A stretch of 64,000 nt of DNA from Candidatus Hydrogenedentota bacterium (GCA_963668025.2 CAXXTH010000008.1:76229-140228); one strand, 5' to 3'; shown: positions 8,301-50,500, numbered from the stretch's first letter. Numbers and translations are program-made. The notes: generated from the sequence alone by a model not told the origin.

Positions 8301-11300
8301 TGGACATTTTCGAGCCATGTGGATGGAGCCTGTCGCCGCTATGATCGTTCTCATCCTTATTATTCTGGTTCGACAGGAGAGCCTCCCTGCCAGCGCACCA
8401 TTCCTAGGTGTATGGCTGGTTTCACCAGCCATAGCCTGGTGGCTAAGCCGCCCCATCCCGGCACGAGAACCAAAACTCTCCGAAGGACAGATTGTCTTTT
8501 TGAGAAAATTGGCGCGCCGAACATGGGAATATTTCGAGGTATTCGTTACGCCGCAAGAAAACTGGCTTCCGCCGGATAATTACCAAGAGCATCCAGTGAT
8601 AAGCATCGCATCGAGGACCAGCCCAACGAACATCGGGATGGCGCTGCTCGCGAACCTATCCGCCTATGATTTCGGATACTGCTCCACAACGCGGATGCTG
8701 GAGCGGACCGAAAATACCCTCGCCACTATGAGCCGCTTGGAAAAATATCGCGGCCACTTCTACAACTGGTACGATACGCATAGTCTCAATATTTTAGCGC
8801 CACGATACATTTCCACGATAGACAGTGGGAACCTCGCAGGGCATCTACTGGTCTTGCGAAGCGGGTTGTTGGAGCTGGTTGATACAAAGATCCTGCCGCC
8901 GCGGATGTTCAACGGAGTACAGGATACGGTTCGAGTGCTCTTCGATGAGGTCAATGATTTTATTGATGGGATGGGTCCAGATTCCAACGTAGCGCCTGCA
9001 AGAGAGGCTTTGCGGAAAATAGAGCAGATAGAGGCAGAATTAAAATCTCGTCCAAGCACGCTCAGGGATTCAATGCTGCTCTTGCAACGTTTATCGGCTC
9101 AGGCAAGCGATCTGGGCCAAATCAACGGCCTGAATGGGGAATCTCAAAAATGGGCTCAGGCGTTAGAACGATGCATAACCGGCCATCTCGGCGACATGGC
9201 CTTTATTGCCCCGTGGGCGCTGCTCCCACTCGCGCCCGAAGAATTCTGGCAAGGCAACTCGCCGGAACGGATTACCGGCATCAATGAGTTGCGGGAGTCA
9301 TTGGAGCGGCTCGAAGAAGTCCCGACTCTCCGCCAGGTGGCCGCGATAAAGCTGTCGTTGCTGCCATTGCTTGATGCGATCTTGGCGGGATTTCATGCAA
9401 CAAATCGTGGTAGCGCAACCCCCCCCAAGGATTTAAAAGCCTGTGCATGGCTTGCCAGCCTTCGCTGCGCATTCGTCGATGCTTCCCAGAACGCCTTGGA
9501 ACGCATTCGGGCGCTGGAAGCCGCTGCGGAACGTTGCCATGAATTATCGGCCATGGACTTCACATTTCTGTTTGATAAATCCCGCGACCTGCTGTCCATT
9601 GGCTACAATGCTGGCGATCACAACCTGGACAAAGGGTATTACGACCTTCTCGCCTCAGAGGCCCGGCTCGCCAGTTTTTACGCGATATCGCAAGGGCAGT
9701 TGGGACAGGAGCATTGGTTCGCACTGGGCCGCCTGCTCACCGCATCCAGAAGCGCAACTGCACTGCTTAGCTGGAGCGGTTCCATCTTCGAATACCTTAT
9801 GCCTCTGCTCGTGATGCCGACCTACGAGAACACCCTTTTAAACCAGACCTACAAAGCGGTCGTGCAACGGCAAATTGAATATGGAAAGCAGCGCGGGACG
9901 CCTTGGGGAATTTCCGAATCCGGATTCAACGCATGGGACGTACACCTGAACTACCAGTATCGGGCCTTCGGCGTGCCGGGGCTGGGATTGAAGCGGGGAC
10001 TGGCCGAGGATCTTGTCGTTGCTCCGTATGCATCGGTCATGGCGCTGATGGTGGAGCCCGAAGCCGCATGCCGAAACCTCGAACGCCTCGTGGCCGAAAA
10101 ACGGCAGGGCCGTTACGGTTTTTACGAGGCGATTGACTACACGACATCCCGCTTGCCGCTCGGAGTCAACAGTGCAACGGTCCGGTCTTTTATGACACAT
10201 CATGAAGGAATGAGCCTTCTATCACTAGAATACCTCCTCCTCGACCGCCCAATGCAACGCCGTTTTCTAGCAGATCCGGCTCTCCAGGCGACGGATCTGC
10301 TGCTGCAAGAACGCATTCCCAAAACAACAGGGCTAATATTTCCCCACGAGATCGAGGCCAGCGCCACACGTATGGCCTCTGCTGAGACGGAAGGCACCGT
10401 GCGTGTCTTCACTGATCCGGGAAGCCCTGTACCGGAAGTGCATCTGCTCTCCAACGGGCGTTATCACGTCATGGTCAGCAGCGCCGGTGGAGGATACAGC
10501 CGCTGGCGTGATCTGGCGCTCACGAGGTGGCGGGAAGATCCGACCCGTGATTGCTGGGGGTCGTTCTGTTATGTGCGTGATTTGTATAGTGGGCGGTTCT
10601 GGTCGATTGGCTACCAGCCCACCCTTCAAGCATCCAAATCGTACGAAGTGATTTTTGCGCAGGGCAAAGCGGAGTTCCGCCGCCGGGATGATGATATCGA
10701 GACCCATACCGAAATCAGCGTTTCACCCGAAGATGACATCGAACTGCGCCGCATCACCATCACCAACCACTCAGACAGGCCACGGATCATCGAACTAACC
10801 AGTTACGCGGAAGTCGTACTGGCTCCGGACGGCCAAGATGTGGCCCATCCAGCGTTTAGCAACCTATTTGTGCAGACCGAACTGGTGCGCGCCCGGCAAG
10901 CGATTCTCTGCACCCGGCGTCCCCGTTCCGCCGAAGAGAAGCCTCCATGGATGGTTCACTTGATGACGCTACAGGGCGAGGCAAGGGGGGAAATATCCTT
11001 CGAGACGGATCGAATGAAATTTGTAGGAAGAGGCCGGGTGCTATCCTGGCCGGCGGCGATGGCCAGCAGTGGGCCATTGTCGAACAGCGTGGGTTCGGTG
11101 CTCGATCCCGTGGCTTCCATCCGGCATACCGTCTCTATTCAACCGAACGAGAAGGCGCGAATAGACTTGGTCACGGGCATCGCCGAAACACGCGAGGCCG
11201 CAATGGCGTTGGTGGATAAATATGACGATCCCCGCCTTGCCGACCGCGTCTTCGAGCTGGCGTGGACACACAGCAACGCCGAACTACAACACCTGAATTC

Positions 11301-14256
11301 CGTAGAGGCTGAGGGGCAAATGTATGGGCGGCTGGCCGGTTCCGTCATTTATGCAACGTCGCGTTATCGGCCAAACTCCGCCATCCTGGTTCGGAATAAG
11401 CGCGGCCAGTCGGGACTCTGGGGCTATGGAATCTCTGGCGATCTTCCCATCGTATTGGTGCGTATTCGTGAGCGGGAGAAGCTTGACCTGGTCCGCCAGG
11501 CTGTCCAGGCGCACGCCTATTGGCGGATGAAGGGGCTGAGTGTAGACCTCGTCATTTGGAATGAAGACAATTCAATTTATCGCGGGGAATTACACGACGC
11601 CATCATGGGCCTTATCGCGGCAAGTTCGGAGGCGGCGATGGTGGACAAGCCCGGCGGGGTGTTTCTGCGCCGGGGAGAACAGATCTCGGAAGAAGATCGG
11701 GTGCTCCTGGAGGCCGTGGCTCGAATCGTACTCGTGGACGATGCCGGGACGCTGCCGGAGCAAGTCGAGCGGCGCGGGCGGGTCCAGGCGCCAATGGCCA
11801 TTCTTAAACCGGCGCGTCGCCGGGCGAAAATGGAACCCGTGGAGACGCCTAAATATGACTTAACCTTCTTTAATGGCCTGGGTGGCTTCACACATGACGG
11901 CCGCGAATATATCACGATCCTGAAACCGGGCGAAAACACCCCCGCGCCTTGGGTTAATGTCATTGCAAACCCACAGTTCGGAACCATCGTGTCGGAGAGC
12001 GGGAGCGTCTACACGTGGGCCGGGAACAGCCATAACTTCCGTTTGACGCCCTGGAGCAATGATCCCGTCAGTGGCAGCGGCAGCGAAGCGATATACATCC
12101 GCGACGAAGAAAGCGGCTACGTCTGGTCTCCTTCTCCCTTGCCTGCCCGCGGGGCCACGGCGTATGTCGTCCGCCATGGTTTTGGCTACAGCATCTTTGA
12201 GTGCCAGGAAGATGGCGCTGCCAGCGAGCTAACCGTATATGTCGATCCGGATGCTCCCGTGAAGTTCGCGCGGCTTAAATTGACAAACCGCTCAGGACGG
12301 CTCCGCCGTTTCTCTGTAACCGCTTATTGGGAATTGGTGTTGGGAGAGTCAAGAGAAAAGACGCTCATGCATGTTGTCACGGAAATTGATCCGATAACGG
12401 GCGCTGTCTTTGCGAGAAATGCGTACAACATGGACTTCAGCGGACGGGTGGTTTTCGCAGCCACAAGCGAAACCACACGAACGATAACAACCGACCGTAC
12501 CGAGTTCCTTGGCCGCAACGGAACGCCTGCCAACCCAGCGGCCCTAAATCGGGTCCGTCTTTCCGGCCGCGTGGGAGCAGGACTCGATCCATGCGCGGCG
12601 ATACAAGCGCCGGTGGAGCTGGATGCCGGACAAGAAAAAGAAATCATTTTTATCTTTGGCGCCGCAGAGTCGGAAGATCAAGCAAGGCAGTTCATTCAAC
12701 AGATTCGGAGCGTCTCGGGAGCGCAACGGGCTCTGGAAGGCGTATGGAATTACTGGGGCCGCACATTGGGCGCGCTGTATGTGGAGACGCCTGATCCCGC
12801 GGTCAACTTCCTGGCCAACGGTTGGCTGATTTATCAAACCCTCTCGTGCCGTATGTGGGCGCGCACGGGATTCTACCAGTCAGGTGGAGCATATGGATTC
12901 CGTGACCAGTTGCAAGACGCCATGGCCCTCCTGTTCGCGGAACCTCTTATGCTGCGCGCGCATTTGCTTCGTGCCGCGGCGAGGCAGTTTCAAGAGGGTG
13001 ACGTCCAGCATTGGTGGCACACGCCATCGGGGCGCGGCGTGCGGACACACTGCTCGGATGACTTTTTATGGCTGCCGTACGCCACCTGCCGGTATGTAGC
13101 CGCCACGGGAGACACCGGCGTGCTGGATGAACCAGCGCCATTCCTCAACGGCCGCCTCCTGCATCCGGAGGAAGACTCCTGTTACGACCTTGCGCAAGTC
13201 TCGGATAAAGTCGAAACGCTCTACGAACACTGTGTGCGGGCAATCAACCACGGCCTGCGTTTCGGGCTCCACGGCCTGCCCCTGATGGGCGGCGGCGATT
13301 GGAACGATGGGATGAACCTCGTCGGAGAACAGGGAAAGGGCGAGAGCGTATGGCTGGGATTTTTCCTGTACGATGTTCTGATACGTTTCGCCGAACAAGC
13401 CCGCCCGCGTGGCGACAGCATGTTTGCGGACAAATGCCTGGCCGAGGCCGGACGCCTGCGCCTTCACATAGAAGATGCCGCCTGGGACGGGCAATGGTAC
13501 CTCCGGGCATTCTTCGACAATGGCGAACCGCTCGGTTCTGCGAAAAACACCGAGTGCCAAATCGACTCGATTCCACAAAGCTGGTCCGTGCTCTCCCGCG
13601 CGGGCGAGCGTGGCCGCACCCAGGCCGCAATGGACAGTGTCGACCGCCGGCTGGTGCGCCGGGACTCACAACTCGTGCAACTTTTTGCTCCTCCATTCGA
13701 TAAGTCGGAACTCAATCCAGGCTATATCAAGGGATATACCCCTGGCGTGCGGGAAAACGGCGGGCAATATACGCATGCCGCAATTTGGGCCGCGATGGCA
13801 TTTGCCGCGATGGGCGATTCCAAACGCGCATGGGAATTATTCTCCCTGCTCAATCCAATTGCCCACGGCGCATCATACGAGCACATGCTACTCTATAGAG
13901 TCGAGCCGTATGTGATGGCGGCTGACATTTATGCCGCGCCCCCTCACACGGGCCGTGGCGGATGGACATGGTACACCGGATCATCTGCTTGGATGTACCG
14001 CCTCATCATAGAATCCCTGCTCGGCTTACAATTACAATCCGATGTCCTTCAGTTTGCCCCTTGCCTCCCATCGGCGTGGCAAACATGCAATATGAACTAC
14101 CGCTACCGCGAGACCTTCTACCACATCACCATCCGTAACGCTGGCGGCGGAAAATCCGTTAAGCGAGTCGTGGTGGATGGTGCGGAACAACTTGAAAGGG
14201 CGGTGCATTTGATTGATGACCGCCATACGCATACAGTAGAAGTGGATGTCGATTGA
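5395..14256 (+). CDS. cyclic beta-1,2-glucan synthase-like protein (NdvB/ChvB/Cgs type: membrane GT84 domain plus C-terminal GH94 phosphorylase-like domain)
   Basis: Single 2953-aa ORF. Hallmark blocks are GYGIIQPRV, RWIRGDWQ, multiple TM segments, and a C-terminal GH94-like region (YQSGGAYGFRDQLQD, GGDWNDGMN, ENGGQYTHAA). The start is uncertain: GTG 5395 or ATG ~5479. Confidence 0.85.
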   Translation: MVGIDSLTGGKVAALLDTPPGIKHRLERLMNWHKTVGGDGQFPPSTDEQPLRAELYSVNQLEHHAKVLAGLHEIATVAALDRLIPRLEENERILIRTYDLLTDAVKTSRRIVPAAEWMLDNFYVIEEQIRTARLHFPPSYSKGLPRLAKGPVAGYPRVYSIAMELISHVDGNLDVESLNAFTASYQAIKPLTLGELWAVPIMLRLGLLENLRRVAVRLTASLRDRGLATEWAERMENVVEQNPSDLILVLADMARANPPLSSAFLAEFTRHLHGQSPHFAFALSWLEHRVSEQGLNIAHLVQMESQVQAVDQVSIGNTINSLRFLSLSDWREFVEGQSIVEQTLRSEPSGVYANMDFATRDLYRHAVEEIAKRSKRPENEIAQQAIGLAMEASTGPHNNRKEHVGYYLIDKGRKTLEQAAGVRWSPRGVLGKGIRRYPLFFYLSSIFVWTACIMAGLIAWADHGGLPAWILALLVAPVLVSVSQFAVSIANWLVTIYIGPQPLPRMDFRHGIPPEHRTIAAVPTMLLNAAATDALLEQLEIRYLANSAPNLHFALLTDLADAPQAVMPEDEGLVRQAREGIASLNRKYEHDRPDIFYLFHRPRRWNEPDRVWMGYERKRGKLKEFNALLRGGSKDCFQEIVGECSVLPQVRYVITLDTDTELPRDAARKLVEAISHPLNRPVFDKEQKRIIDGYGIIQPRVGISLPSASRSWYVRLLAADAGVDPYTRAVSDIYQDLFGEGSFIGKGIYDVGALHQACACLPDNAILSHDLLEGAYARSALLSDVEVYEDHPYRYFTDVSRRRRWIRGDWQIAWWLLPRVPGQYAKWSPNPISALSKWKIADNLRRSLVPPAMLMLLVFAWLLPWLWLSAGATLLVIAILVIPTLLSAAGGIVHKPRDLPWWMHFHALAPGIFRQMGQVLFVLALVPYDAYISLDSITRTLVRVLWKRRKLLEWTTSSDAAFAVRTDLRGHFRAMWMEPVAAMIVLILIILVRQESLPASAPFLGVWLVSPAIAWWLSRPIPAREPKLSEGQIVFLRKLARRTWEYFEVFVTPQENWLPPDNYQEHPVISIASRTSPTNIGMALLANLSAYDFGYCSTTRMLERTENTLATMSRLEKYRGHFYNWYDTHSLNILAPRYISTIDSGNLAGHLLVLRSGLLELVDTKILPPRMFNGVQDTVRVLFDEVNDFIDGMGPDSNVAPAREALRKIEQIEAELKSRPSTLRDSMLLLQRLSAQASDLGQINGLNGESQKWAQALERCITGHLGDMAFIAPWALLPLAPEEFWQGNSPERITGINELRESLERLEEVPTLRQVAAIKLSLLPLLDAILAGFHATNRGSATPPKDLKACAWLASLRCAFVDASQNALERIRALEAAAERCHELSAMDFTFLFDKSRDLLSIGYNAGDHNLDKGYYDLLASEARLASFYAISQGQLGQEHWFALGRLLTASRSATALLSWSGSIFEYLMPLLVMPTYENTLLNQTYKAVVQRQIEYGKQRGTPWGISESGFNAWDVHLNYQYRAFGVPGLGLKRGLAEDLVVAPYASVMALMVEPEAACRNLERLVAEKRQGRYGFYEAIDYTTSRLPLGVNSATVRSFMTHHEGMSLLSLEYLLLDRPMQRRFLADPALQATDLLLQERIPKTTGLIFPHEIEASATRMASAETEGTVRVFTDPGSPVPEVHLLSNGRYHVMVSSAGGGYSRWRDLALTRWREDPTRDCWGSFCYVRDLYSGRFWSIGYQPTLQASKSYEVIFAQGKAEFRRRDDDIETHTEISVSPEDDIELRRITITNHSDRPRIIELTSYAEVVLAPDGQDVAHPAFSNLFVQTELVRARQAILCTRRPRSAEEKPPWMVHLMTLQGEARGEISFETDRMKFVGRGRVLSWPAAMASSGPLSNSVGSVLDPVASIRHTVSIQPNEKARIDLVTGIAETREAAMALVDKYDDPRLADRVFELAWTHSNAELQHLNSVEAEGQMYGRLAGSVIYATSRYRPNSAILVRNKRGQSGLWGYGISGDLPIVLVRIREREKLDLVRQAVQAHAYWRMKGLSVDLVIWNEDNSIYRGELHDAIMGLIAASSEAAMVDKPGGVFLRRGEQISEEDRVLLEAVARIVLVDDAGTLPEQVERRGRVQAPMAILKPARRRAKMEPVETPKYDLTFFNGLGGFTHDGREYITILKPGENTPAPWVNVIANPQFGTIVSESGSVYTWAGNSHNFRLTPWSNDPVSGSGSEAIYIRDEESGYVWSPSPLPARGATAYVVRHGFGYSIFECQEDGAASELTVYVDPDAPVKFARLKLTNRSGRLRRFSVTAYWELVLGESREKTLMHVVTEIDPITGAVFARNAYNMDFSGRVVFAATSETTRTITTDRTEFLGRNGTPANPAALNRVRLSGRVGAGLDPCAAIQAPVELDAGQEKEIIFIFGAAESEDQARQFIQQIRSVSGAQRALEGVWNYWGRTLGALYVETPDPAVNFLANGWLIYQTLSCRMWARTGFYQSGGAYGFRDQLQDAMALLFAEPLMLRAHLLRAAARQFQEGDVQHWWHTPSGRGVRTHCSDDFLWLPYATCRYVAATGDTGVLDEPAPFLNGRLLHPEEDSCYDLAQVSDKVETLYEHCVRAINHGLRFGLHGLPLMGGGDWNDGMNLVGEQGKGESVWLGFFLYDVLIRFAEQARPRGDSMFADKCLAEAGRLRLHIEDAAWDGQWYLRAFFDNGEPLGSAKNTECQIDSIPQSWSVLSRAGERGRTQAAMDSVDRRLVRRDSQLVQLFAPPFDKSELNPGYIKGYTPGVRENGGQYTHAAIWAAMAFAAMGDSKRAWELFSLLNPIAHGASYEHMLLYRVEPYVMAADIYAAPPHTGRGGWTWYTGSSAWMYRLIIESLLGLQLQSDVLQFAPCLPSAWQTCNMNYRYRETFYHITIRNAGGGKSVKRVVVDGAEQLERAVHLIDDRHTHTVEVDVD

Positions 14257-16526: not shown

Positions 16527-16593
16527 AGCGTTGCACCGTTAATTGCATGCATGGCAAAGCAGGCTATGCTGCCGACGAACAGGAGGTTGTCAT

Positions 16594-17472
16594 ATGCCTA
16601 GGTTTCGAAGGGATACGGTACAAAAGCGAGTGTTGGCGGTAGAAGAATTAGCGACTCTTCCCGCTTCGCTTGCCCGCATTTTAGCTATCACGCAAGACCC
16701 AAATTCGACCTCCTTGGATTTGGCCGCCGAAATCGCGAAAGATCCCGCTCTCACGGCTAAAGTCTTGCGAACCGTTAACTCGAGTTTCTACGGCTTTCAA
16801 CGCCGCATCCAAACAGTCTCCGATTCAGTCGTTTTGCTGGGCTACACCGAAGTCGAGCGCCTTGCCTTGGCCATTTCGGTCATAAATCTGTTTGGCGGCG
16901 AACTGCTCCGTGCTCGATTCCTGCACCAGCTTTGGCGGCATAGTTTCGTGGCCAGCATAGCCGCGGATATCGTCGCGGAGGCCTATATGCCAGGCATTCC
17001 AGAACTCAGCGGCGCGCATGTGGCCGCGCTTTTACATGATATTGGCAAAGCGGTCCTCGCGCAATGCATCCCGGAAGCGGCTCCCGCGATTGCCCAGCTC
17101 ATGGATAATAGCGGGCTTAGCTGTTTGGAGGCGGAAGCCCAGATCTTGGATGGTTTCACCCATTGCGAAGTAGGCGCATGGGTGGCGGAACGCTGGTCAT
17201 TGCCGGTTTCCATCATCGAATGCATATTGCTCCATCACGCGCCAGATCAAGCAACAGAAGAGCATCCTATGCTCCATGCCACGCATGTAGCCAATGCGGT
17301 GTGTTACGAATTGGGCGTTCCCGCGATAACGGAGCTGGCCGAGCCACCAGCCGTATGTCCCCGTTCCTTTGAATACTTGCACGTGGATGGCGCGTTCACG
17401 TCCCGGGTGGAGGAACGTATTCAAAAGCGGCGGGATCTCATTAGCATGATTACGACCGGCGTGGCTATTTAG
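16594..17472 (+). CDS. HDOD domain protein
   Basis: AGGAGG RBS precedes ATG 16594. HDOD-type blocks are LPASLARIL..DPNSTSLDLAAEIAKDPALTAKVLRTVNSSFYG, LLHDIGK and HHAPD. Confidence 0.8.
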   Translation: MPRFRRDTVQKRVLAVEELATLPASLARILAITQDPNSTSLDLAAEIAKDPALTAKVLRTVNSSFYGFQRRIQTVSDSVVLLGYTEVERLALAISVINLFGGELLRARFLHQLWRHSFVASIAADIVAEAYMPGIPELSGAHVAALLHDIGKAVLAQCIPEAAPAIAQLMDNSGLSCLEAEAQILDGFTHCEVGAWVAERWSLPVSIIECILLHHAPDQATEEHPMLHATHVANAVCYELGVPAITELAEPPAVCPRSFEYLHVDGAFTSRVEERIQKRRDLISMITTGVAI

Positions 17473-17594
17473 TGATGCCGCCTATTCTTGCGCTCTAGCC
17501 AATTTGGAAATCCCTGCTTACTTCGGTAAAGTGTAGCTCCGTTGGAGCGCTCATGTGCTGATGTATGGTGGCAACTAGGGATTTGAGAGTTGGC

Positions 17595-18422
17595 ATGAAG
17601 AAAAAACCTGAAAATGAAATAGCTCGCTATGCTCAAAAAGCGTACAATAACCACGAATTCTTGAACAGCCCGGATGCGCGCACCGTACGCGTCCTATGTG
17701 AATTCATCGAACCAGGCTCCCGATTCCGGAAGTTTCACGTATACAATACAATATGCTTCTTCGGCTCCGCCCGCGCCCAGACGCCCCATGTGGCCCGCCA
17801 CGCCTTCGATGTAGCGGAACAGCTCAATGCCGAAAGCCCGTCACCAGAAAACGCCCTCCAGTTGGAACGCGCACGTTATGGCATTCGGCTGGCTAGGTAT
17901 TATCAAGACGCGATGGATTTATCGAAGCGTTTATGCGAATGGTCTATGGCTATCGACAAGCCGCAACGGCGCTTCCATATTTGTTCAGGCGGCGGGCCAG
18001 GCATTATGGAAGCAGCCAATCGGGGGGCGAGCCTAGCTGGTGCGCCCAGCATTGGCCTCAATATCAGCTTGCCCTTCGAACAGAAGCCAAACCCATATCA
18101 AACGCCTGAGCTGGCGCTCGAGTTTCATTATTTCTTTGTACGCAAATTCTGGTTTGTCTATCTTTCCAAAGCTTTAGTGGCCTTTCCCGGCGGTTTTGGC
18201 ACCTTCGATGAATTGTTCGAGCTATTAACGCTTGTTCAGACGAAAAAAGCCGGCAAAACGGTCCCCGTGGTGCTGTATGGCGCGGAGTTTTGGAATGAAG
18301 TAATGAATTTCGAGGCGTTGAAGAAATGGGGCGTCATTAATCCAGCCGATCTCGGGCTGTTCCATGTCTGTGATGATGTGGAGTGCGCATTCCAATTCTT
18401 GACGGAGCATCTGGCGCAATAG
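17595..18422 (+). CDS. LOG-family (TIGR00730-like) Rossmann-fold nucleotide-binding protein
   Basis: Contains GGGPGIMEAANRGA and PGGFGTFDELFE motifs. The start could be 17565 or 17595. Confidence 0.8.
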   Translation: MKKKPENEIARYAQKAYNNHEFLNSPDARTVRVLCEFIEPGSRFRKFHVYNTICFFGSARAQTPHVARHAFDVAEQLNAESPSPENALQLERARYGIRLARYYQDAMDLSKRLCEWSMAIDKPQRRFHICSGGGPGIMEAANRGASLAGAPSIGLNISLPFEQKPNPYQTPELALEFHYFFVRKFWFVYLSKALVAFPGGFGTFDELFELLTLVQTKKAGKTVPVVLYGAEFWNEVMNFEALKKWGVINPADLGLFHVCDDVECAFQFLTEHLAQ

Positions 18423-18523: not shown

Positions 18524-19462
18524 TTAGTCCCGTTTCACGACCGTGGTTTTTGCCGCGGCGCGCAGTTTGGGGAGGAGCACCTGCTCGATGACTTGGGGCC
18601 CCTTATACAGCGTGAGTTCCTCTTTATCAATGACATCCACCGCGCCCGAGTCCATCACTTTCTGGCGCATGACGCTGCCCCGCTGGGCAATGGTCGAGAC
18701 GATCACTGTGGGGATGGGCTTGTAGCGCATGATTTTTTGCAGGAATGTATGGCCATCCATCTTAGGCATGATGATGTCCAGGCACAGCACATCGGGATCT
18801 AGCTCGAGGATAAGCTCCCGGGCCTGATATGGGTCCGCCGCTTCCCCCAGCACTTCCATGTCTTGGGAGCGCTCGATGCCTTGGCGCAAGACCGCCCGCA
18901 CCGTGCTTGAATCGTCGATGATAAGCACCCCTATCTTGCGCTGCTGGAATTTGGAGATGCGCTGGGCGCGTTCCTGATTGGCGGCCATGGGATTGATGGG
19001 GCGCACCTGGATCTCGTTCGTGGCCGTATTCATGGCGATTTTACGGCCCTTTTGCTCGCCAACCTCCTCCCGCATAATACGAATGCCCATCTTGCCAAGC
19101 TGTTCGCGGGCTACGGCGATATTGCGCGTGCCGACTTGCTGGCCGCCCTCGAGCGACTGCACCGCGGATAAATGGCCGATGACCTGGCCGCCGCCGTAAA
19201 TGCTGGCTACAAGGCTTCCAGGCTGCGAACCTGCTTTCAACGCAAGTTTCACAAGCGTCTGAATGGCGAAATCGCCATATTTACTGGGCGATAGTCCACC
19301 TTCCTTCTTGTACGGCAGCATGTAGTGGTTCATTCCGCCCCATCGTTTATGGATGTCATGCAGGCACACGGCCACGCACGAACCAAGAAGCGTACTGACA
19401 TCGGTTTCTTCTCGTTCAAAAGCATATTCGCCTGGAAGCAAAAAGACTTTACGTTCCGCCAT
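18524..19462 (-). CDS. CheD (receptor glutamine deamidase) fused to a C-terminal CheB-type receiver domain
   Basis: The N-terminal half is LLPGEYAF..TLLGSCVAVCLHD..GGMNHYMLP (CheD). The C-terminal half is IGVLIIDDSSTVRAVL..EVLGEAADPYQAREL..PDVLCLDIIMPKMDGHTFL..PTVIVST (like the CheB REC domain). No methylesterase domain is present. Confidence 0.8.
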   Translation of the reverse strand: MAERKVFLLPGEYAFEREETDVSTLLGSCVAVCLHDIHKRWGGMNHYMLPYKKEGGLSPSKYGDFAIQTLVKLALKAGSQPGSLVASIYGGGQVIGHLSAVQSLEGGQQVGTRNIAVAREQLGKMGIRIMREEVGEQKGRKIAMNTATNEIQVRPINPMAANQERAQRISKFQQRKIGVLIIDDSSTVRAVLRQGIERSQDMEVLGEAADPYQARELILELDPDVLCLDIIMPKMDGHTFLQKIMRYKPIPTVIVSTIAQRGSVMRQKVMDSGAVDVIDKEELTLYKGPQVIEQVLLPKLRAAAKTTVVKRD

Positions 19463-19474
19463 ACAACGCTCCTC

Positions 19475-21601
19475 TCATGCCAGAAGGGGGCTAAGTTTAT
19501 CGACATCAATAATAAGCGCCACCGAGCCATCTCCCAATAGCGCGCCGCCCGTGATCGATTCCGCTCCGGAAGACATGCCCTCCAGGGTGCGTACGACGAT
19601 TTGTTGCACTCCGCGTACGCCATCAACGACAAGCGCGAACTGGCGGCGCTGCGCCTCAGCCGTAACCATAAGCTCATAGGCTGATTCCATATCCCGGTGG
19701 GGAAGGCCGAGTTCTTCCCGCATATCGAGTACAGGCAAAATCATGCCATGGCGTTGAATGCACCGGCCCCGGCCCGTTATGACCGTGATGTCATTATGCT
19801 CAATCTTGACCGTTTCCCGGATCCGATTCATGGCTAACACATAACATTGATTATCTACAATAACAACAAATCCATCCATTATCTGCGTCGTAACGCTCTT
19901 AGGCAGTTGGACCTGGAATACCGAGCCTTCCCCTGCTTTCGTGGAGACGCTAATCTGCCCGCCCGCTTGATCCACCATCCGCATCACCACGTCCATGCCA
20001 ACGCCCCGCCCAGATACATCCGTGACCTTTTGAGCCGTCGAGACGCCCGAAGAGAACAGCAAATTGACAATATCATTTTCAGATAATGGCTGGTCCGCCC
20101 GGACAAGGCCCATGCTTTCAGCCTTCTTCTTTAGCGCTTCCAAATTGATGCCCGCGCCATCATCCCGCACGATTAACGTGATATTCGTGCTGGACTCCTC
20201 CGCGATGATTTGGATGTGGCCTTCACGGGGCTTGCCATGCTGCTGCCGGGCTTCTGGCATCTCGATGCCATGATCCGCGGCATTGCGCACCATATGGGTG
20301 AGCGGGGCGTCTAGGATGTCGATGAGGCTCTTGTCCACTTCGATATGCCCGCCTTCCACGGTCGCCGCGATCTCTTTTCCGGCCACGGTGGCCACATCCC
20401 GAATAATGCGCGGCGCACGTGAAAGCAGCGTGCCTACGGCTACTTTGCGTATGGACATGATGCTTCGCTGCAAATCATGGGACAATACCGTGAAAGTCTC
20501 GTTGATACGCCGGAAATCGTTCACTAAATAGGAATCATGCAATTTGTTCGCCAGTTGCCGTTCCAAATGGCTAAACATGTCGCCTACTACGACCAATTCA
20601 CCGACAAAGGAAAGGAATTTGTCGATATGCGCTTCAGACACGCGCATCGTTTTCGCTGTGGTTTCGACAGGATGCTGCGCGGCGGCCTCTGGTTTGGGCT
20701 TTGAAGGCTCCTCTGCTTGCGCCGGAGCGGGCTCTAGTTCCTTTTTCACCACCGGCCAAGGCTGTATGGCGATGAGTTCCCTGGCCTTTTCCAGAAGCAG
20801 TTCTCGCAGAAGCGAATCGAATCCTACGCTATCCACAAATACCTGGTACGAGTCCAGCATATCCGCTAAAATAGCTTGCGCCAGTTCATTTCCCGCAACC
20901 AATCCCGGCAATTGCCGGAGTGCTGCGCCCACAGCCTCACTTTCCTCCACAGGCAGGCTATCGCCAAACGGCTCGCCGATTTTCTTCATGATGAGCGCCA
21001 TAGGCTCCGGCAAGCCTTCCGCCGCTATATTGGCATTTCCCGTTTCCAATTGGACACCGGGATGCAATTTGCGCAGGCACATCATTGCGGCGTCCAACTC
21101 CGTGATAAGCTGGGCCGCATCTGGCGCAAGCGCTTTACGAAGCGCCTCGAGCCGCGAAAAGGCGTCACACCAGAGATCATCCGCTTCGACCACTTTTGTC
21201 GTGGCCGCGTTTCGAACTTCCTCGACCAAGGCCTCGTAGGCCGCCTGGTCCACTACTTCCGGCCCGCTTAGCCTCGCCCGATCCAGCATAGCCTTCAGTT
21301 CATCCACGGATTTGAGCAACACACTGATCAGCGTCTCGGAGACGGCCAGCGTTTTTTTACGGAGCATATCCAGCAAGCTTTCGGATTCATGGGCGAGAGT
21401 CTTCACTTTCGTGAAACCGAAAAACGCGGAATTTCCCTTGATGGAATGTACGGGCCGGAATATAGCTTGGATAATATCGAGGTTATCGGGCGCTTGCTCG
21501 AGCTGGACGAAGAGGCTGTCCACGGAAGCCAGCATATCTAGGGATTCATCAATAAACTCGGTAAGCAGTGCCGGATCAATAGTCAGGGATGGCTCGCTCA
21601 T
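19475..21601 (-). CDS. cheA: CheA-type histidine kinase (Hpt, dimerisation, HATPase and CheW-like domains)
   Basis: Contains FRPVHSIKGNSAFFGF (Hpt), HMVRNAADHGIE, DDGAGI, GRGVGMDVV, and a C-terminal CheW-like domain. ATG 21601 overlaps the upstream cheY stop as ATGA. Confidence 0.9.
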   Translation of the reverse strand: MSEPSLTIDPALLTEFIDESLDMLASVDSLFVQLEQAPDNLDIIQAIFRPVHSIKGNSAFFGFTKVKTLAHESESLLDMLRKKTLAVSETLISVLLKSVDELKAMLDRARLSGPEVVDQAAYEALVEEVRNAATTKVVEADDLWCDAFSRLEALRKALAPDAAQLITELDAAMMCLRKLHPGVQLETGNANIAAEGLPEPMALIMKKIGEPFGDSLPVEESEAVGAALRQLPGLVAGNELAQAILADMLDSYQVFVDSVGFDSLLRELLLEKARELIAIQPWPVVKKELEPAPAQAEEPSKPKPEAAAQHPVETTAKTMRVSEAHIDKFLSFVGELVVVGDMFSHLERQLANKLHDSYLVNDFRRINETFTVLSHDLQRSIMSIRKVAVGTLLSRAPRIIRDVATVAGKEIAATVEGGHIEVDKSLIDILDAPLTHMVRNAADHGIEMPEARQQHGKPREGHIQIIAEESSTNITLIVRDDGAGINLEALKKKAESMGLVRADQPLSENDIVNLLFSSGVSTAQKVTDVSGRGVGMDVVMRMVDQAGGQISVSTKAGEGSVFQVQLPKSVTTQIMDGFVVIVDNQCYVLAMNRIRETVKIEHNDITVITGRGRCIQRHGMILPVLDMREELGLPHRDMESAYELMVTAEAQRRQFALVVDGVRGVQQIVVRTLEGMSSGAESITGGALLGDGSVALIIDVDKLSPLLA

Positions 21602-22032
21602 CCGATGCTCTCCCGCTGGTGTGATTTCATGACGGTCAGATCGTGGAGAATGCGTATCCAATTCCGCAATTCGGCCACAGCCCGTTCAACGGCGTCTTCG
21701 AGTTCCTTCATATCCTCGATGGGCTTAAATACGCACGTGTCGGCCCCTAGCCGCATGCACGCCAAAGCGTTGTCCAACGTCACCATTCCCGTCATCATGA
21801 TGGTATGCACCATAGGATATTGCGCCCGCACCTGGCGCAGAAAATCAATCCCATTCATGACAGGCATCATGATATCGGAAATGACAATGTCTGTTTTGCG
21901 TTCCTGCATCCGTTCGAGCCCTTCCGCGCCGTTTGCCGCCATGTGGGTCTCATAACCAATCATGCGGAAATGGCGCGCTAGCATCTCACGGAGTTCAACC
22001 TCATCATCAACAATGAGAATGGTGGCATTCAT
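21598..22032 (-). CDS. CheY-like single-domain response regulator
   Basis: AGGAGG lies 6 nt upstream of ATG 22032. Receiver motifs are ILIVDDE, VISDIMMPVMNG, MMTG and VFKP. Confidence 0.85.
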   Translation of the reverse strand: MNATILIVDDEVELREMLARHFRMIGYETHMAANGAEGLERMQERKTDIVISDIMMPVMNGIDFLRQVRAQYPMVHTIMMTGMVTLDNALACMRLGADTCVFKPIEDMKELEDAVERAVAELRNWIRILHDLTVMKSHQRESIG

Positions 22033-22130
22033 TAAAAGCCTCCTATTCATGAAGACCGGGTTAACGGCAAAACCTCTTGGCTTCTATTTCCCAATCCCAC
22101 AGTTCCCGCGCGGGACGCCTTAATGTATGT

Positions 22131-22595
22131 TTAGCCTAACAGACTAGGTATTATAAACCATTGAATGCCCCATTGGCCCGCTTCATTGCGATGCAACGCA
22201 ATAGCGCCACCCTTTTGAAATAATACCAGTTCACGGCCTTCATCGCCAACCAAGAGCAGCGAAGCCAGCCGGGAAAGATGGGGGAGATGCCCCACGATCA
22301 CCAAATCCGCCTCGCGGGCGCGCAATTCATGCGCCATATGGTCGGCTGGATCCTTGGGCTCGAGGCCAGGCCGCAAACAACACTGCCCTCGGGGCGCCAT
22401 AGCGGGGAGCAACAGCTCAGCCGTTTGCAGACTGCGGGCTTTGCTGCTATGCCATATCTCTGGCACGCTTAACGCAAAACGAGAAAGAATGTTCGCCATG
22501 GCCGCCACATCGCGCATGCCGCACGGCGTGAGAGGGCGTTCAGAATTTTCACTCTTCTCATACGCCTCTCCATGCTGGACCAGATAGAGGTTCAT
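22131..22595 (-). CDS. sixA: phosphohistidine phosphatase SixA
   Basis: LYLVQHGEA..RPLTPCG..SSKARSLQTAE..IVGHLPHLS. This is the histidine-phosphatase RHG-type pattern at SixA size (154 aa). Confidence 0.75.
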   Translation of the reverse strand: MNLYLVQHGEAYEKSENSERPLTPCGMRDVAAMANILSRFALSVPEIWHSSKARSLQTAELLLPAMAPRGQCCLRPGLEPKDPADHMAHELRAREADLVIVGHLPHLSRLASLLLVGDEGRELVLFQKGGAIALHRNEAGQWGIQWFIIPSLLG

Positions 22596-22612
22596 GAAGA
22601 CATCCTCCCAGG

Positions 22613-22972
22613 TTATGCAACGGTTTCACCGAGAATCCCGAACTGGACCAGCGCTTCCGCAAGCCTATCCGCGTGAATGCCATAATGAGACGTGTTCCAT
22701 ATCGCGACGCCGTCTCGAACCAATACGATTTGAGGAGATTGATGGGGCACTCCCAAACACATGGCGATCTCAGTGGATACCTGGCGCTCTTCAATAACTC
22801 TTACCATGTATACCTCTGGATGCCCGCTGGCGCCAGCGTCAAACTGAGAAACCCGCTGGAAAGCGTCAGCCGATATAGGGCACTTCGTGCTGTGTTTGAA
22901 TATAAGCACCGCCGATTCAAACGACTGCTCGATGCATGCCCGCAATTCCTCAACGCTTGATAATGTCTTCAT
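22613..22972 (-). CDS. YtxJ-type thioredoxin-like (monothiol, bacillithiol-system-like) protein
   Basis: GGGAGG RBS precedes ATG 22972. Contains LIFKHSTKCPIS and VPHQSPQIVLVRDG..WNTSHYGI motifs. Confidence 0.75.
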   Translation of the reverse strand: MKTLSSVEELRACIEQSFESAVLIFKHSTKCPISADAFQRVSQFDAGASGHPEVYMVRVIEERQVSTEIAMCLGVPHQSPQIVLVRDGVAIWNTSHYGIHADRLAEALVQFGILGETVA

Positions 22973-23261
22973 GGAGACGCCTCCCGTAATGCTGAAAAAA
23001 GTCTCCAGCAACTATTTGCCTGCGGTTATGATAGAGACGCTTCATTGGCGGGTCAAGCATCTATTTAAAATGATGAAAAATCGAGCTTTGCCCAATAAGT
23101 CCATTATTATCTGGCGCCATTCAAATGGTAGAGAATATGATCTTCAAGTTGCGTGTTTTCACGTATTGACAGGCCTAAAAACAGGCTCTAGACTAAGCAT
23201 TGCCCGGCCGTAGGCAGCCAGCGGCGGCATATAGCGGTTATAGAAGGAGGGACAGCTTTCC

Positions 23262-23813
23262 ATGAAACGTGTTCTAGTGCCTTTGGCGGAAGGATGTGAA
23301 GAACTCGAAGCGGTCACGATCATCGACCTGTTGCGGCGTGCGGAATTTGAAGTGGTGTCGGCCAGTTTGGATGGGCGCGCCGTGAAAGCATCGCGTGGGG
23401 TGGTGCTGGTTCCAGATAAATCCCTCGATGAAGCGCTCCAGATGGACTATGATATGGTGGCGCTGCCGGGCGGCATGCCCGGAGCTGTAAATCTGGATAA
23501 TGATGCGCGCATTCATGCGGTGCTGAAAAAGACGGCCGGGAGCGGCAAATTCGTAGCGGCCATCTGCGCGGCGCCCACGGTGCTCGCCCATGCGGGCCTC
23601 CTGAATGGCAAAAAAGCCACCAGTTACCCAGGATTTCTCGACAAAATGAATTTGCCCGAAGTAACGTTCACAGGCTCGCCCGTCGAACGTGATGGGCAGG
23701 TTATAACATCCCGGGGGCCCGGTACGGCCATGGATTTTGCCCTCGAATTGATTGAGGCGTTGGAAGGCCTAGAACGGCGCAAAAAAGTAGAGAATGCGCT
23801 ATTCCGTCCATAA
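23262..23813 (+). CDS. DJ-1/PfpI (YajL/ThiJ-like) family protein
   Basis: GAAGGAGG RBS. Contains MVALPGGMPGA, the AAICAAP nucleophile-elbow cysteine, and ITSRGPGTAMDFAL. Confidence 0.85.
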   Translation: MKRVLVPLAEGCEELEAVTIIDLLRRAEFEVVSASLDGRAVKASRGVVLVPDKSLDEALQMDYDMVALPGGMPGAVNLDNDARIHAVLKKTAGSGKFVAAICAAPTVLAHAGLLNGKKATSYPGFLDKMNLPEVTFTGSPVERDGQVITSRGPGTAMDFALELIEALEGLERRKKVENALFRP

Positions 23814-26029: not shown

Positions 26030-26620
26030 ATGCGCACCAGTCAAATACGGCGTGACACCGCCGAAACCCAGATCATGGTTTCGATAAACCTAGATGGAGC
26101 CGGAAAAGCCGATGTGGATACGGGCATTGGCTTCTTCGATCATATGCTCAGCCAAATCGCCCGGCATGGCCTTTTCGATATCACCGTAAAAGCCGCCGGT
26201 GATCTCCATATCGATGCGCACCATACCGTGGAAGATGTCGGAATTGTGCTGGGGAAAGCATTTCTAGAGGCCTTGGGCGGCTGCCAGGGCATTACGCGTT
26301 ACGGCCATGCTGTAATTCCCATGGACGAAGTGCTCGCTGAAGTGGCGGTGGATTTTAGCGGACGTCCCTGCCTCGTGTTCCAGGCCGAATTAGGGCATGG
26401 CGTTTTAAATGGCTTTGATGCGGAGCTGGCCGAAGAATTCTTTCGAGCTTTCGCGGTGAACGCCCGCGGCACGGTGCATGTTATCTTGCGATATGGCGGC
26501 AATCTACACCATTGCATCGAAGGGCTCTTCAAAGCCTTCGCGCGGGCCTTGGATGCGGCTTCACGTATTGACCCGCGCATTTCCGGAGTGCTATCAACAA
26601 AAGGCATGCTCGAAATTTGA
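26030..26620 (+). CDS. hisB: imidazoleglycerol-phosphate dehydratase
   Basis: Contains RDTAETQI, TGIGFFDHML, DAHHTVEDVGIVLG, ITRYGHAVIPMDE and HHCIEGLFKAFARAL. Confidence 0.92.
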   Translation: MRTSQIRRDTAETQIMVSINLDGAGKADVDTGIGFFDHMLSQIARHGLFDITVKAAGDLHIDAHHTVEDVGIVLGKAFLEALGGCQGITRYGHAVIPMDEVLAEVAVDFSGRPCLVFQAELGHGVLNGFDAELAEEFFRAFAVNARGTVHVILRYGGNLHHCIEGLFKAFARALDAASRIDPRISGVLSTKGMLEI

Positions 26621-26648
26621 CAACCAACAACAGGACCAAATCCCAACA

Positions 26649-27521
26649 ATGACTGATATAGCATTAGTGGAAGATGTTGTAGAACGAATTGGTGAACTCC
26701 CCGTGATGTCCGCGGTAGTGGGCGAGTTTGTCATGCGAGCCGATGATCCATCCACTACTATGGATGAGCTTGTGCATGTGATCGAGCGGGATCCGGTCCT
26801 TGCCGCCAAAGTGCTGCGTGTGAGCAATTCCCCCTATTACGGGATGCGCCAGCATGTCGGAACGCTCAAACTGGCTCTAGTCATTCTGGGCAGCCGCGAA
26901 GTCCGGAATCTGGTCTTGGGCCTTTCCGTCACGGACATGGCCGGCATGGAGCATATAGACCCCATATTTGCAAAAGGCTACCGTTTGCATTCCTATCTAG
27001 TGGCCGCTCTTACGCGCAGGCTGGCCAATGAAGTAGCGGGAGTGGATGCTGGCGAAGCATTCGTCGGCGGCCTGCTGCATGACATCGGCAAAATCGTGCT
27101 CGCCCGGCGTTTTGGCGCGGAGTACGCCAAAATACATAACGATAACAAAGCCTTCTCGGAGCAGCTTTGCGCCGCGGAACGCAGCCAGTATGGCTTTTCC
27201 CATGCCGAAGTCTCAGCGGCGCTCTCGATTACATGGAGCTTTCCAGAATCCTTGTCAGACGCCTTATGGCTGCACCACTATGATCCAAAATTCAGCATGG
27301 AACAGGCAAAAAATCGCAAGCTGGCTGCGGTGGTCCGCGTCGCTAACTATTGCGCCCGCAATTCGGAGCCAAATGCCGCGAAGGATATTTGGGAAGAACC
27401 AGATATGGCAGCCGTTTGGCGTTGCCTAGGAATCCTTGAACCGGATGCCTGTCGAGCGCTTCTCCAAAGCATCCACGAAGAGATGATTGCTGAAGCAGAA
27501 ACCCTTGCAGCTATCTTCTAG
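26649..27521 (+). CDS. HDOD domain protein (second paralog in the window)
   Basis: ATG 26649 lies after the hisB stop. Contains LPVMSAVVGEF..DPSTTMDELVHVIERDPVLAAKVLRVSNSPYYG, LLHDIGK and HHYDP. Confidence 0.8.
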   Translation: MTDIALVEDVVERIGELPVMSAVVGEFVMRADDPSTTMDELVHVIERDPVLAAKVLRVSNSPYYGMRQHVGTLKLALVILGSREVRNLVLGLSVTDMAGMEHIDPIFAKGYRLHSYLVAALTRRLANEVAGVDAGEAFVGGLLHDIGKIVLARRFGAEYAKIHNDNKAFSEQLCAAERSQYGFSHAEVSAALSITWSFPESLSDALWLHHYDPKFSMEQAKNRKLAAVVRVANYCARNSEPNAAKDIWEEPDMAAVWRCLGILEPDACRALLQSIHEEMIAEAETLAAIF

Positions 27522-30138: not shown

Positions 30139-33100
30139 CTACCAATAAATGTACTTCAAGAAGGTCGAGCGGCTGGCGGCGTCTAACGCCTCGAGATCCT
30201 CGATCTCATACCGGTTGTTATCCACATCGACGATAATATGCCCATTTACGGGGCCTTCAATGACCGAGTTCGTTTCAAAGCGGCGCGTCAGGAACTCCAT
30301 TACCCCCTTGTCCGTCTCGACATTCCAGATAAGGAATCCCATCTCTTCCTTGATATCGTCGATTTTCTTGATATAGTGGATAAAGTAGCGCTTGCTCAGT
30401 TCATGCTCGACCGCCATACGCGAACTAGGCAGCAGCTCCTTCAACCGGCGGATCATCCCCACTTCCTTATGCTCGAGGGCGGAGTCACCCGTCCATAGAG
30501 CGACAAACTCGCTCGGCCGTGTGATGGGGAAGCACCGGTATGCGCGCACATTTTCATAGACATCTTTATGGTATTCGACGCGCATGCCGCCTTCATCCTT
30601 CGAATAAATGCGCATCTCTTTCGGATCAAAATAGCGGATTTTCGGCGCCTCGAGCCGGCGGCGCTGATCACGTTTAGTCTTTACGCCTCTCCGTTCCTTT
30701 TCTACCCGGTTGATCTCCTGGATGGCTTGTAATCCATCGACGGATTCCACATCACTCGTAAGCTGGGTCTGAATCTCCACCAGCCGTTTATAAATGCCAT
30801 CTTGCAGAAGCAATTCCTCGTGGGTGCCCTGTTCTCGAATCGTTCCCTCCTCGAAAACGATGTTGCGGTCGCAGTTGCGCAAGGTCGACAACCGGTGGGC
30901 AATGGCCACCGTCGTGCGGCCCACGCTCAGCGCCTCGAGGGCGTTCTGAATCTCACGTTCCGAGATGGTGTCCACGCTCGAGGTGGCCTCATCGAGAATC
31001 AACACTCGAGGATTGTTCAACAATGCCCGCGCGATGGCCACCCGCTGGCGTTCGCCGCCCGACAAGCCTGAACCGCGTTCGCCCAGCATCGAATCATATC
31101 CATCATGGTTGCGCGTGATGAACATGTGGGCGTTGGCCGCCAATGCTGCGTTCAATATCTGTTGCATCGCCACGCCCGGATTGCCGTATGCGATGTTTTC
31201 CGCTATGGTGCCCCGGAACAGGAAAGGATCCTGGGCCACCATGCCGATCTGCCGGCGCAGGCAATGCTTGCGGATCTTACGCACATCAATGTTATCGACG
31301 CTCACCTCGCCTTCGGTGGCTTCATAATAACGCATGATGAGATTAATAGTGGTGGATTTGCCACAGCCGCTATGGCCCACGATGCCCACCATCTCGCCCG
31401 GTTCTACACTAAAACTCACGTCGTGCAGCACCGGTATGTGGGGATCATATCCAAACGAGACATTCTTAAAGCGGATGCCCCCCTGGATTTCAATATCCAC
31501 CGCCTTGTCATCTTCAGTGACTTCCGGCTCTTCATCCATCACTTCAAACACACGGTGCGCCTGCGTGATGAACTGGGTGAACCACGTGGACATCTGCGTC
31601 AGCGAGTTGATGGGGCCGTAAAACCATCCTAAATACCCCAAAAACATGATCAGCGTGCCGGTGGTCAGGCCTCCCACTTGTTGGGTGAGCCAGTTTCCAA
31701 AGCGCGCATACCAGGGGCCAGAGCTTTGCGGCGCTTGCAGGCTGGCCTCTTCTCCGATAGGGGCAGGCGTGTCCTTTCCTGTAGCGGCTTTGGCTGCCGT
31801 GGCATCCAGGGCTTTTCCATCGACTGTCTGCTGGACGCTTACGCCCGGCGCAACGCTGGTGTTATCTATTGGAGCCGAGTTAAAAGACATGGCCAGCACC
31901 GCCAGCCCGCCCAGCACCCAAATGAAATAACTGCCCAATTGGAATACCCAGCCCATGGTCGGGTAAAACCACGCGTTGGCGTATCCTACATCCAGTCCCG
32001 CATTGCGGAACCGGCCGCTATACCCATCAAAGCGCTGTAATTCACGCGATTCCTGCGCGAACGCCTTCACCACCCGGACCCCGTTCAGCGCCCCATGCAG
32101 CATGTTGGATAGGCTCGACCGGGTCGTCCAGTACCGCCGCCATCTCGGGACGATATAGCGGTAGTAAAACACCGTGCATCCCGAAACAAAGGGCACTGGC
32201 AGTACGGCGATCAAGGTGAGCAACGGATTGATCATGAGCATATAGACCGTCACCACCACCAGCATGATCAACTGATACCCGAAGCCCGCCGTAAGCTGGT
32301 TGATGAATCCCTGAAGCGCCTCGATGTCTTGCGTGCACCGGGTCATGAGCGTGCCCACCGGATGGGTGTCATGATATCGCACCGCCAAATCCTGCATCTT
32401 CGAGAAGACTTCCCGCCGTAGCTCGAAGCCCAAGCGGTTATTGATATACACCGCCATATGCTCGCGCAGCCAGGCAATCACCGCACCAATGGCCGTGGTG
32501 GCGGCCAATATGCCCACTACCAATAGCAGCCACCAGTCTTTATGATAATTCCCATCGGACCGCAAGGTGTCGAAACCAAGATGAGACACCATCATGCGGA
32601 ACCAGCCGTCAGGGGCGATATTACCCAACACATTATCCAGCAACACTTTCGTGAGCTGTTGGGGAACCAGCGTGATCAGGATATGTAACACCACCAAGAC
32701 CATGGCCAGCACGGTAAAAAACCAATATTGTTTCGTGTGCTTGAGGAAGCGTAAAAGCACCGTGCCGCGTTTCAGGCATTTCGGGCATACGCGCATATAC
32801 CGGTCCGGCAGGCGCACCCCGCAGATCTCGCACCGGTCGCTCGGACGCTTCTCCTCCGTCTCGCTCATCACCTGGCGGCCTTCGGCAAGCTGCTTCAGGC
32901 GGATCGCCACCTTCGCGAATTTATCGGCGTTCTTGTTCGAGAAACGTATCAATTCCTCGAAGACGCCTTGCATCTTGATTTCGATGAAGCCCGAACCCAC
33001 CCGCGTATCCGTGCGGGCCGTCTCAATATCCGAAAACGGGATATCTTTCAGCAGCAGCGCTTCATTATCTTCCTCGTCCATGAAGAATACTAAGACCCGC

Positions 33101-50498: not shown

Positions 50499-50500
50499 TC

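Follow-up and report, generated by a model that had tools for sequence, protein, structure and literature searches.

A CheD–receiver fusion beside a probable accessory CheA, and its ytxJ–sixA neighbours, in a Candidatus Hydrogenedentota bacterium

Five genes packed on the minus strand of a Candidatus Hydrogenedentota genome raise the question of whether a YtxJ-type thiol protein, a SixA phosphohistidine phosphatase, a CheY-like receiver, a CheA kinase and a CheD–receiver fusion (CheD::REC) form one chemosensory operon that has no receptors of its own and is switched off by SixA. They lie at positions 18524-23011 of a stretch of 64,000 nucleotides, here called the window (C8:76229-140228 of a 6.1-Mb assembly in 24 contigs; the window's own genome is designated G000). 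A first-pass annotation had proposed such an operon, with SixA as a dedicated phosphatase of the P1 domain of CheA. Our analysis confirmed all five open reading frames, their common strand and tight packing, and the identities assigned to their products, and it did not support the role given to SixA. The explanation that we favour, with slightly better than even confidence in it as a whole, is that two units, each conserved independently of the other, have come to adjoin here: an accessory chemosensory branch and a general-purpose ytxJ-sixA pair.

The case for a chemosensory unit starts from the last of the five genes, cheD::REC (18524-19462, minus strand), whose 312-residue product has a CheD domain (PF03975) at residues 48-154 (77.4 bits against 25, 1e-21) and a receiver domain (PF00072) at residues 179-281 (2e-20). 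A database search found 752 relatives at E <= 0.001, with both domains in all 120 of those listed, in Planctomycetota, Nitrospinota, Hydrogenedentota, Lentisphaeria and other taxa. Across 25 diverse members, T24, C29, N45 and H46 of the CheD part and D183, D229, S256 and K280 of the receiver are invariant, so that both halves look functional; T24, C29 and H46 are the presumed equivalents of the catalytic residues of Thermotoga maritima CheD. The likeness to CheD of T. maritima and Bacillus subtilis comprises the family match and, if this equivalence holds, the invariant Thr, Cys and His. It extends to the fold, as an AlphaFold2 model of the fusion (predicted local distance difference test score, pLDDT, 88.4) matched the CheD chain 2f9z_C in Foldseek with TMt 0.85 and E 1.9e-14. 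Literature searches, which left subscription journals largely outside their coverage, found no description of such a fusion, and the available part of a paper on the che genes of Geobacter does not mention it.

The receiver half resembles CheB rather than CheY. The best NCBIfam match for the whole protein is the CheB model PRK00742 (positions 2-135, 2.5e-35), and among sequences in the PDB the CheB entries 6ymz and 1a2o scored about 98 bits, with matches running through the CheB linker (1a2o residues 3-135), as compared with 51 bits or less for CheY structures. These scores clearly separate CheB-type from CheY-type receivers, and the Foldseek match to the CheB receiver 3t8y (TMt 0.88-0.90) is of the same kind. 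Judged by sequence, receiver and linker together are a CheB regulatory domain and, like CheB, the protein is encoded beside a CheA. It is nevertheless not a CheB, because it ends about 30 residues past the receiver and contains no match to the methylesterase family CheB_methylest (PF01339) within its 312 residues. It also differs from CheB in domain order, the CheD catalytic domain being N-terminal to the receiver whereas the catalytic domain of CheB is C-terminal.

A possible origin of this architecture can be read from a survey of CheD-family loci, 80 of which were listed from genomes (in this survey and in the metagenome survey of SixA loci used below, related loci are not independent). At 47 of the 80 loci cheD and cheB are separate genes, with cheB coming directly after cheD; a two-domain CheD::REC is present at 20, while 4, from Bdellovibrio and Oligoflexia, encode a tri-domain protein of the type CheD-REC-CheB_methylest and 9 have other arrangements. 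The tri-domain proteins (L022:1756-3321, L028, L029:9989-11551 and L079:9989-11545; about 520 residues) belong to che clusters, where their genes come behind those for CheA and CheW. They share with the window's protein the succession of CheD and a CheB-type receiver, and they differ from it in having kept the methylesterase where the window's protein stops after the linker. We regard them as likely intermediates, and the series of gene pair, tri-domain protein and CheD::REC seen among the loci suggests a cheD-cheB pair as the origin of the fusion, with the methylesterase lost later. An interaction between CheD and CheB has been detected in Halobacterium salinarum, according to the available part of PMC3579733. 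At the 20 loci with the two-domain form, CheA is encoded directly upstream in 14, CheR is found within the locus in 6, and a methyl-accepting chemotaxis protein (MCP) in 2; the lack of adjacent receptors is thus a general feature of the module, not a peculiarity of G000.

The two genes preceding cheD::REC are cheA (19475-21601, minus strand) and cheY (21598-22050, minus strand), the products of which are called CheA-w and CheY-w in the following. CheA-w has 708 residues and shows Hpt (12-108), H-kinase_dim (317-384), HATPase_c (433-568) and CheW (577-703) domains, all above the Pfam cut-offs; P1 with its phospho-acceptor histidine, P3, P4 and P5 are therefore all present. H52, in the motif 'HSIKGNS', and the N/G1/G2-type kinase boxes are invariant in two alignments. 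No Pfam match for P2 was found in residues 109-316 at E <= 0.01, a segment with a conserved 'VGFD'; many CheAs are without a recognisable P2, so that this does not speak against a CheA. The C-terminal CheW-like domain remarked upon in the first-pass annotation is indeed there, but it is the normal P5 of any CheA. CheY-w is a single-domain receiver (PF00072, 2.2e-26) for which ATG 22032 is the likelier start, as it is preceded by an AGGAGG box and yields a protein of 144 residues, the length of the orthologue in the relative G118. The two proteins, each encoded upstream of an orthologous CheA, are 51% identical over 144 residues.

In a sample of 135 genomes of the phylum, the CheA-w type (700-740 residues, with a weak score for the dimerisation domain) occurs in 9 and was confirmed at 484-658 bits in 8 loci. 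A 144-residue receiver is encoded upstream of it in G000 and in the five genomes whose upstream flank was covered (G118, G040, G047, G113 and G108); no receiver was detected upstream in G038 and G090, and the contig of G109 ends short. In the same five relatives, a REC-HisKA-HATPase gene lies upstream of the receiver gene and CheD::REC is missing; G047 has in addition a REC-HD-GYP gene and an MCP. CheD::REC follows CheA-w in three genomes, G000, G038 and G090. The G000 orthologue of the REC-HisKA-HATPase protein (46% identity) is encoded elsewhere, at C17:163.8-165.0 kb, and we found no simple path of a single rearrangement leading from a G118-like gene order to that of G000.

With CheA-w in place, the question is where its receptors are. 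Profile searches of all contigs of G000 gave 6 matches to MCPsignal, 11 to the CheW domain, 7 to CheR, 3 to CheD, 6 to CheB_methylest, 4 to CheX, 2 to the CheC motif and 6 to flagellin. None of the MCPsignal, CheR and CheB_methylest matches falls within the window, and no stand-alone CheW gene does either, P5 of CheA-w being the sole CheW-domain match there. The description as receptor-less therefore holds for the locus and fails for the genome. There are three other che clusters (on C17, C10 and C18), and four of the MCPs are orphans, among them those at C10:477.6 kb, C19:205.3 kb and C6:21.5 kb. The match nearest to the window, from which it is some 16 kb distant, is an open reading frame for a CheB-CheR fusion (C8:58.8-60.2 kb), and it is not in the operon. 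It is one of two open reading frames of about 1000 residues with CheB_methylest and CheR domains (C8:58795-60162, locus L139, and C17:160884-162245), the copy on C17 lying just upstream of the REC-HisKA-HATPase orthologue whose counterparts accompany CheA-w in relatives.

Two relatives indicate how CheA-w might be supplied. In G118, a single string of genes (REC-HK, CheY-w, CheA-w, CheA-main, CheW ... CheB) joins CheA-w to the main cluster, and in G038 the module adjoins MCP and CheW genes whose best matches in G000 are orphan MCPs (the signalling domains being 67% identical) and the CheW of the main cluster (55%). Because of these arrangements we interpret CheA-w as an accessory branch using receptors in trans, and the probable source of receptors and CheW is the main, flagellar-type cluster with its arrays.

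What the analysis shows is domain content, the conservation of catalytic and phospho-acceptor residues, and gene-order counts; on this basis a scheme can be proposed for the branch, in which each phosphotransfer step, the control of CheD by its receiver and the sharing of receptors are inferred. CheA-w would autophosphorylate on His52 of its Hpt domain and pass the phosphoryl group on to two receivers, CheY-w and that of CheD::REC. As that receiver is a CheB regulatory domain, its phosphorylation should switch the fused CheD, a receptor glutamine deamidase and possibly also a demethylase, in the same way as CheA-dependent phosphorylation controls the receptor-modifying enzyme in the case of CheB. 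In that case CheD::REC would act as a feedback enzyme like CheB, with another catalytic domain at its core, and equally as a version in one polypeptide of the loop formed by phosphorylated CheY (CheY-P), CheC and CheD. The CheD of B. subtilis, as reported in the available part of PMC3513319, binds receptors and, under the control of CheY-P, also CheC. The fusion differs from that loop in carrying the phospho-sensing part in cis, so that no CheC would be needed, and the five-gene module has neither a CheC nor a CheX gene. If CheD::REC is indeed a phosphorylation-switched deamidase, adaptation enzymes have been built at least two times on the same CheB receiver, with the intermediates visible in the succession from cheD-cheB pair through the tri-domain protein to CheD::REC. 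As a simple system, the fusion lends itself to in vitro study of the control that a receiver exerts on CheD.

The same protein might instead not be mainly an enzyme, and serve to draw off phosphate as a sink or to tune receptor-CheA activity by binding in a phosphorylation-dependent manner, with the output running via CheY-w to a non-motility target. For B. subtilis CheD, the available part of the same source (PMC3513319) stresses binding to receptors and CheC as against enzymatic activity, and the pairing of CheA-w with REC-HisKA-HATPase in five relatives, or with REC-HD-GYP in G047, in place of CheD::REC suggests an output into other signalling. The invariance of T24, C29 and H46 among the 25 diverse fusions argues, however, that enzyme activity has been kept, and the series leading from the cheD-cheB pair to the fusion points to receptor modification. 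We therefore consider a non-enzymatic main role quite unlikely.

The second unit begins with sixA (22131-22595, minus strand), which has a GGGAGGA box before its ATG. The product belongs to the QHG clade of the phosphohistidine phosphatase family, with a full-length match to TIGR00249 (79.8 bits against 74.5) and one to PF00300 (22.6 bits against 21.7). It aligns over its full length with Escherichia coli SixA (1ujb; profile 9.6e-16) and keeps His8, Arg20, Arg54 and His103, the equivalents of His8, Arg21, Arg55 and His108 of that protein; these residues are invariant in an alignment of homologues, and R54 and H103 have their counterparts in the 'LRAEQT' and 'SHLP' segments of 1ujb. For the catalytic His and Arg residues, a lack of which the first-pass annotation had named as a refutation, the result is mixed: these four are kept, but Q7 aligns with the Arg of the RHG motif. 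The resulting QHG is common to 116 among the 120 nearest homologues listed and is therefore a trait of the clade and not a sign of decay.

If SixA were the signal terminator of this system, it would take over the part of CheZ, CheC or CheX by dephosphorylating the Hpt-fold P1 of CheA-w, and a single functional operon would comprise the five genes. The biochemistry of the family allows for this, and the module, as mentioned, has no CheX or CheC gene. According to the available part of PMC13104625, E. coli SixA acts on the Hpt domain of ArcB and on NPr, which makes an Hpt domain and an HPr-type protein both plausible targets in G000; the genome has one HPr/NPr homologue, an alternative candidate substrate for its SixA. 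Co-orientation of the genes and a sixA-cheY gap of 80-98 nucleotides free of terminator-like sites also fit a common operon.

Gene order in relatives cuts both ways. In 10 genomes SixA and a CheA are encoded on one contig and less than 10 kb apart (G000, G029, G032, G008, G005, G122, G118, G010, G004 and G017) and in one more (G023) SixA adjoins CheB. The adjacency that the first-pass annotation proposed to check across genomes is thus seen, for SixA and che genes, in 11 genomes of 8 genera and in at least two gene orders, all of them belonging to one family. In relatives within this family SixA and cheB converge where the main cluster ends, so that SixA is not co-transcribed with che genes there. 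Among the SixA loci examined in other relatives, 7 of 20 have two-component genes within about 2.2 kb, in one case with an overlap of 4 nucleotides with a hybrid kinase gene (L132). The wider surveys count against a link with chemosensory genes: SixA, like YtxJ, was found at 0 of the 80 listed CheD::REC or cheD-cheB loci, and che genes accompany SixA at 1 of the 80 loci listed from metagenomes, in the same main-cluster layout (about 39 of the 80 are at least 6 kb long and the others too short to judge).

Distribution within the phylum leads to the same result. SixA and CheA are each found in 69 of the 135 genomes; they occur together in 41 (35 expected if independent), while SixA alone and CheA alone account for 28 each and 38 have neither, so that there is no phyletic coupling. 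Five longer SixA-containing proteins were found, none of which has an Hpt, REC or kinase domain. In addition, SixA is the only copy in G000 and carries Gln for the Arg of RHG, and in two further families (f4 and f5) ytxJ occupies the corresponding position without sixA, so that the location of SixA may follow that of YtxJ. Literature searches, again with subscription journals largely outside their coverage, revealed no link between SixA and CheA. A SixA-CheA link would matter if true, and its odds are lowered by these data; a dedicated role as terminator is not supported and, in our view, unlikely, and a non-dedicated action of SixA on P1 is possible but likewise of low probability.

The first gene of the five, ytxJ/brxC (22613-23011, minus strand), starts with TTG at 23011 or alternatively with ATG at 22972. 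Its product, a protein of the monothiol bacilliredoxin type, matches PF11009 (9.1e-31, 106.2 bits against 24.2) and TIGR04019 (108.7 bits, the cut-off being 77.25), and has a single Cys in the motif 'STKCPIS'. It shares these family matches and the single-Cys motif with B. subtilis BrxC/YtxJ; the genome has no second BrxC match, and it carries BshC. What sets the protein apart from that of B. subtilis is that its gene keeps its place beside sixA and che clusters, for which the literature searches found no previous description.

YtxJ and SixA are encoded within 3 kb of each other in 10 genomes of one family. In G023 they are joined in frame in a single open reading frame of 301 residues (L112:7541-8446 on contig C37), which is also a single protein at NCBI (P0242); among the five longer SixA forms it is the sole fusion to a partner from this operon. 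YtxJ on its own, without sixA, is convergent after cheB in the families f4 and f5 (G039, G108 and G113), so that ytxJ appears to be the older neighbour of che clusters, and it is tied to such clusters by synteny in three families. It is single copy in G000 and present in 109 of the 135 genomes, many of them without CheA, which points to a general role. We thus propose that ytxJ and sixA are general-purpose genes and that their position beside che genes would be an old synteny at the level of the family. Their pairing, the natural fusion and the QHG variant are cheap leads into the poorly understood phosphohistidine phosphatases of bacteria.

Of the redox input hinted at in the first-pass annotation, the data show a tie of YtxJ to SixA, through adjacency and one fusion, and to che clusters, through synteny, but no mechanism. 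One form that such a mechanism could take is that YtxJ/BrxC keeps the catalytic Cys of CheD reduced by de-bacillithiolation, which would explain why ytxJ is found beside CheD-bearing che clusters. BrxC reduces S-bacillithiolated proteins in B. subtilis, as the available part of PMC8113031 has it. In G000, BshC is present, Cys29 of CheD is invariant and ytxJ stands upstream of cheD::REC, and in the three families with ytxJ convergent after cheB the main clusters contain CheD. This link between YtxJ and CheD is one of synteny, mostly in convergent orientation, and it is opposed both by the general role indicated for the single-copy YtxJ and by its absence from all 80 listed CheD::REC or cheD-cheB loci, which are from other phyla; we regard the mechanism as very improbable. 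Scarcely more probable is a related idea, in which the QHG-type SixA and YtxJ together would be a redox-gated phosphohistidine phosphatase that drains the P1 domains of CheA kinases in this family of Hydrogenedentota, beside an analogue of CheB built from CheD. If true, the signal would be terminated at the kinase itself, a route that is not known for any chemosensory system.

Several observations weigh against the explanation that we favour, an accessory chemosensory branch next to a general-purpose pair. The AlphaFold2 model of CheD::REC has a predicted template-modelling score (pTM) of 0.57 and does not confidently pack the receiver against the active site of CheD, which sets it apart from CheB and leaves a CheB-like model of inhibition without structural support. 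The count of the fusion within the phylum is incomplete, as the search covered 60 of the 134 other genomes; among these 60 relatives the full-length protein was found in one (G038, of another family), and a further one is present in G090. The sharing of receptors that we suggest is drawn from two relatives and from similarity at the level of domains. Finally, SixA stands beside che genes in 11 genomes and at least two orders, and here tightly upstream of cheY, and there may be a functional link.

The five genes are closely spaced. The gap between ytxJ and sixA is 17 nucleotides and that between sixA and cheY 80, or 98 with the start of cheY at ATG 22032. Further downstream, as had been noted from the outset, the stop of cheY and the ATG of cheA (21601) overlap by 4 nucleotides and 12 nucleotides separate cheA from cheD::REC. 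Upstream of ytxJ there is a weak promoter-like pair of -35 and -10 elements (23028-23056, minus strand; TTGACC-17-TATCAT, 10 of 12 consensus matches). A scan of the region for promoter-like and terminator-like sites gave 5 and 6, respectively, against 4.4 and 4.4 in shuffled sequence, and thus no excess that would support the co-transcription of all five genes. The group is bounded by a convergent gene of the LOG family (17565-18422, plus strand) and by a divergent DJ-1 gene (23262-23813, plus strand).

Some further observations concern the surroundings of ytxJ and sixA in relatives. In the genus g6, an NHL-repeat gene lies between the two (L124:11092-12579 in G005 and L120:6406-7737 in G032), and that of G005 carries an N-terminal thioredoxin-like domain. 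In family f13, SixA is encoded after an HTH_17-receiver gene (L132:586-3863 in G048 and L130:7262-8469 in G055); in G048 it also follows the gene for a PAS-ATPase-receiver hybrid kinase, with which it has the overlap mentioned above, and this looks like a two-component operon containing SixA. A flagellin gene is found directly downstream of SixA on the same strand in G049 (L136:7094-8556).

Within the window, the five genes are flanked by HDOD genes at 16543-17472 and 26478-27521, about 1 kb and 3.5 kb away, and the main che clusters of the family also have an HDOD gene, located between cheD and the receiver gene before cheB (L138, L115, L124 and others). A giant protein of the GH94 family is encoded at 5395-14256, in an open reading frame of 2953 residues with Glycoamylase, GH94 supersandwich (two stretches) and GH94 catalytic domains. 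At 30139-33267 there is a fused ABC transporter with membrane and ATPase parts and a C-terminal DUF1854, and at 49560-51214 a gene for a ParA/MinD-like ATPase is followed by a bactofilin gene.

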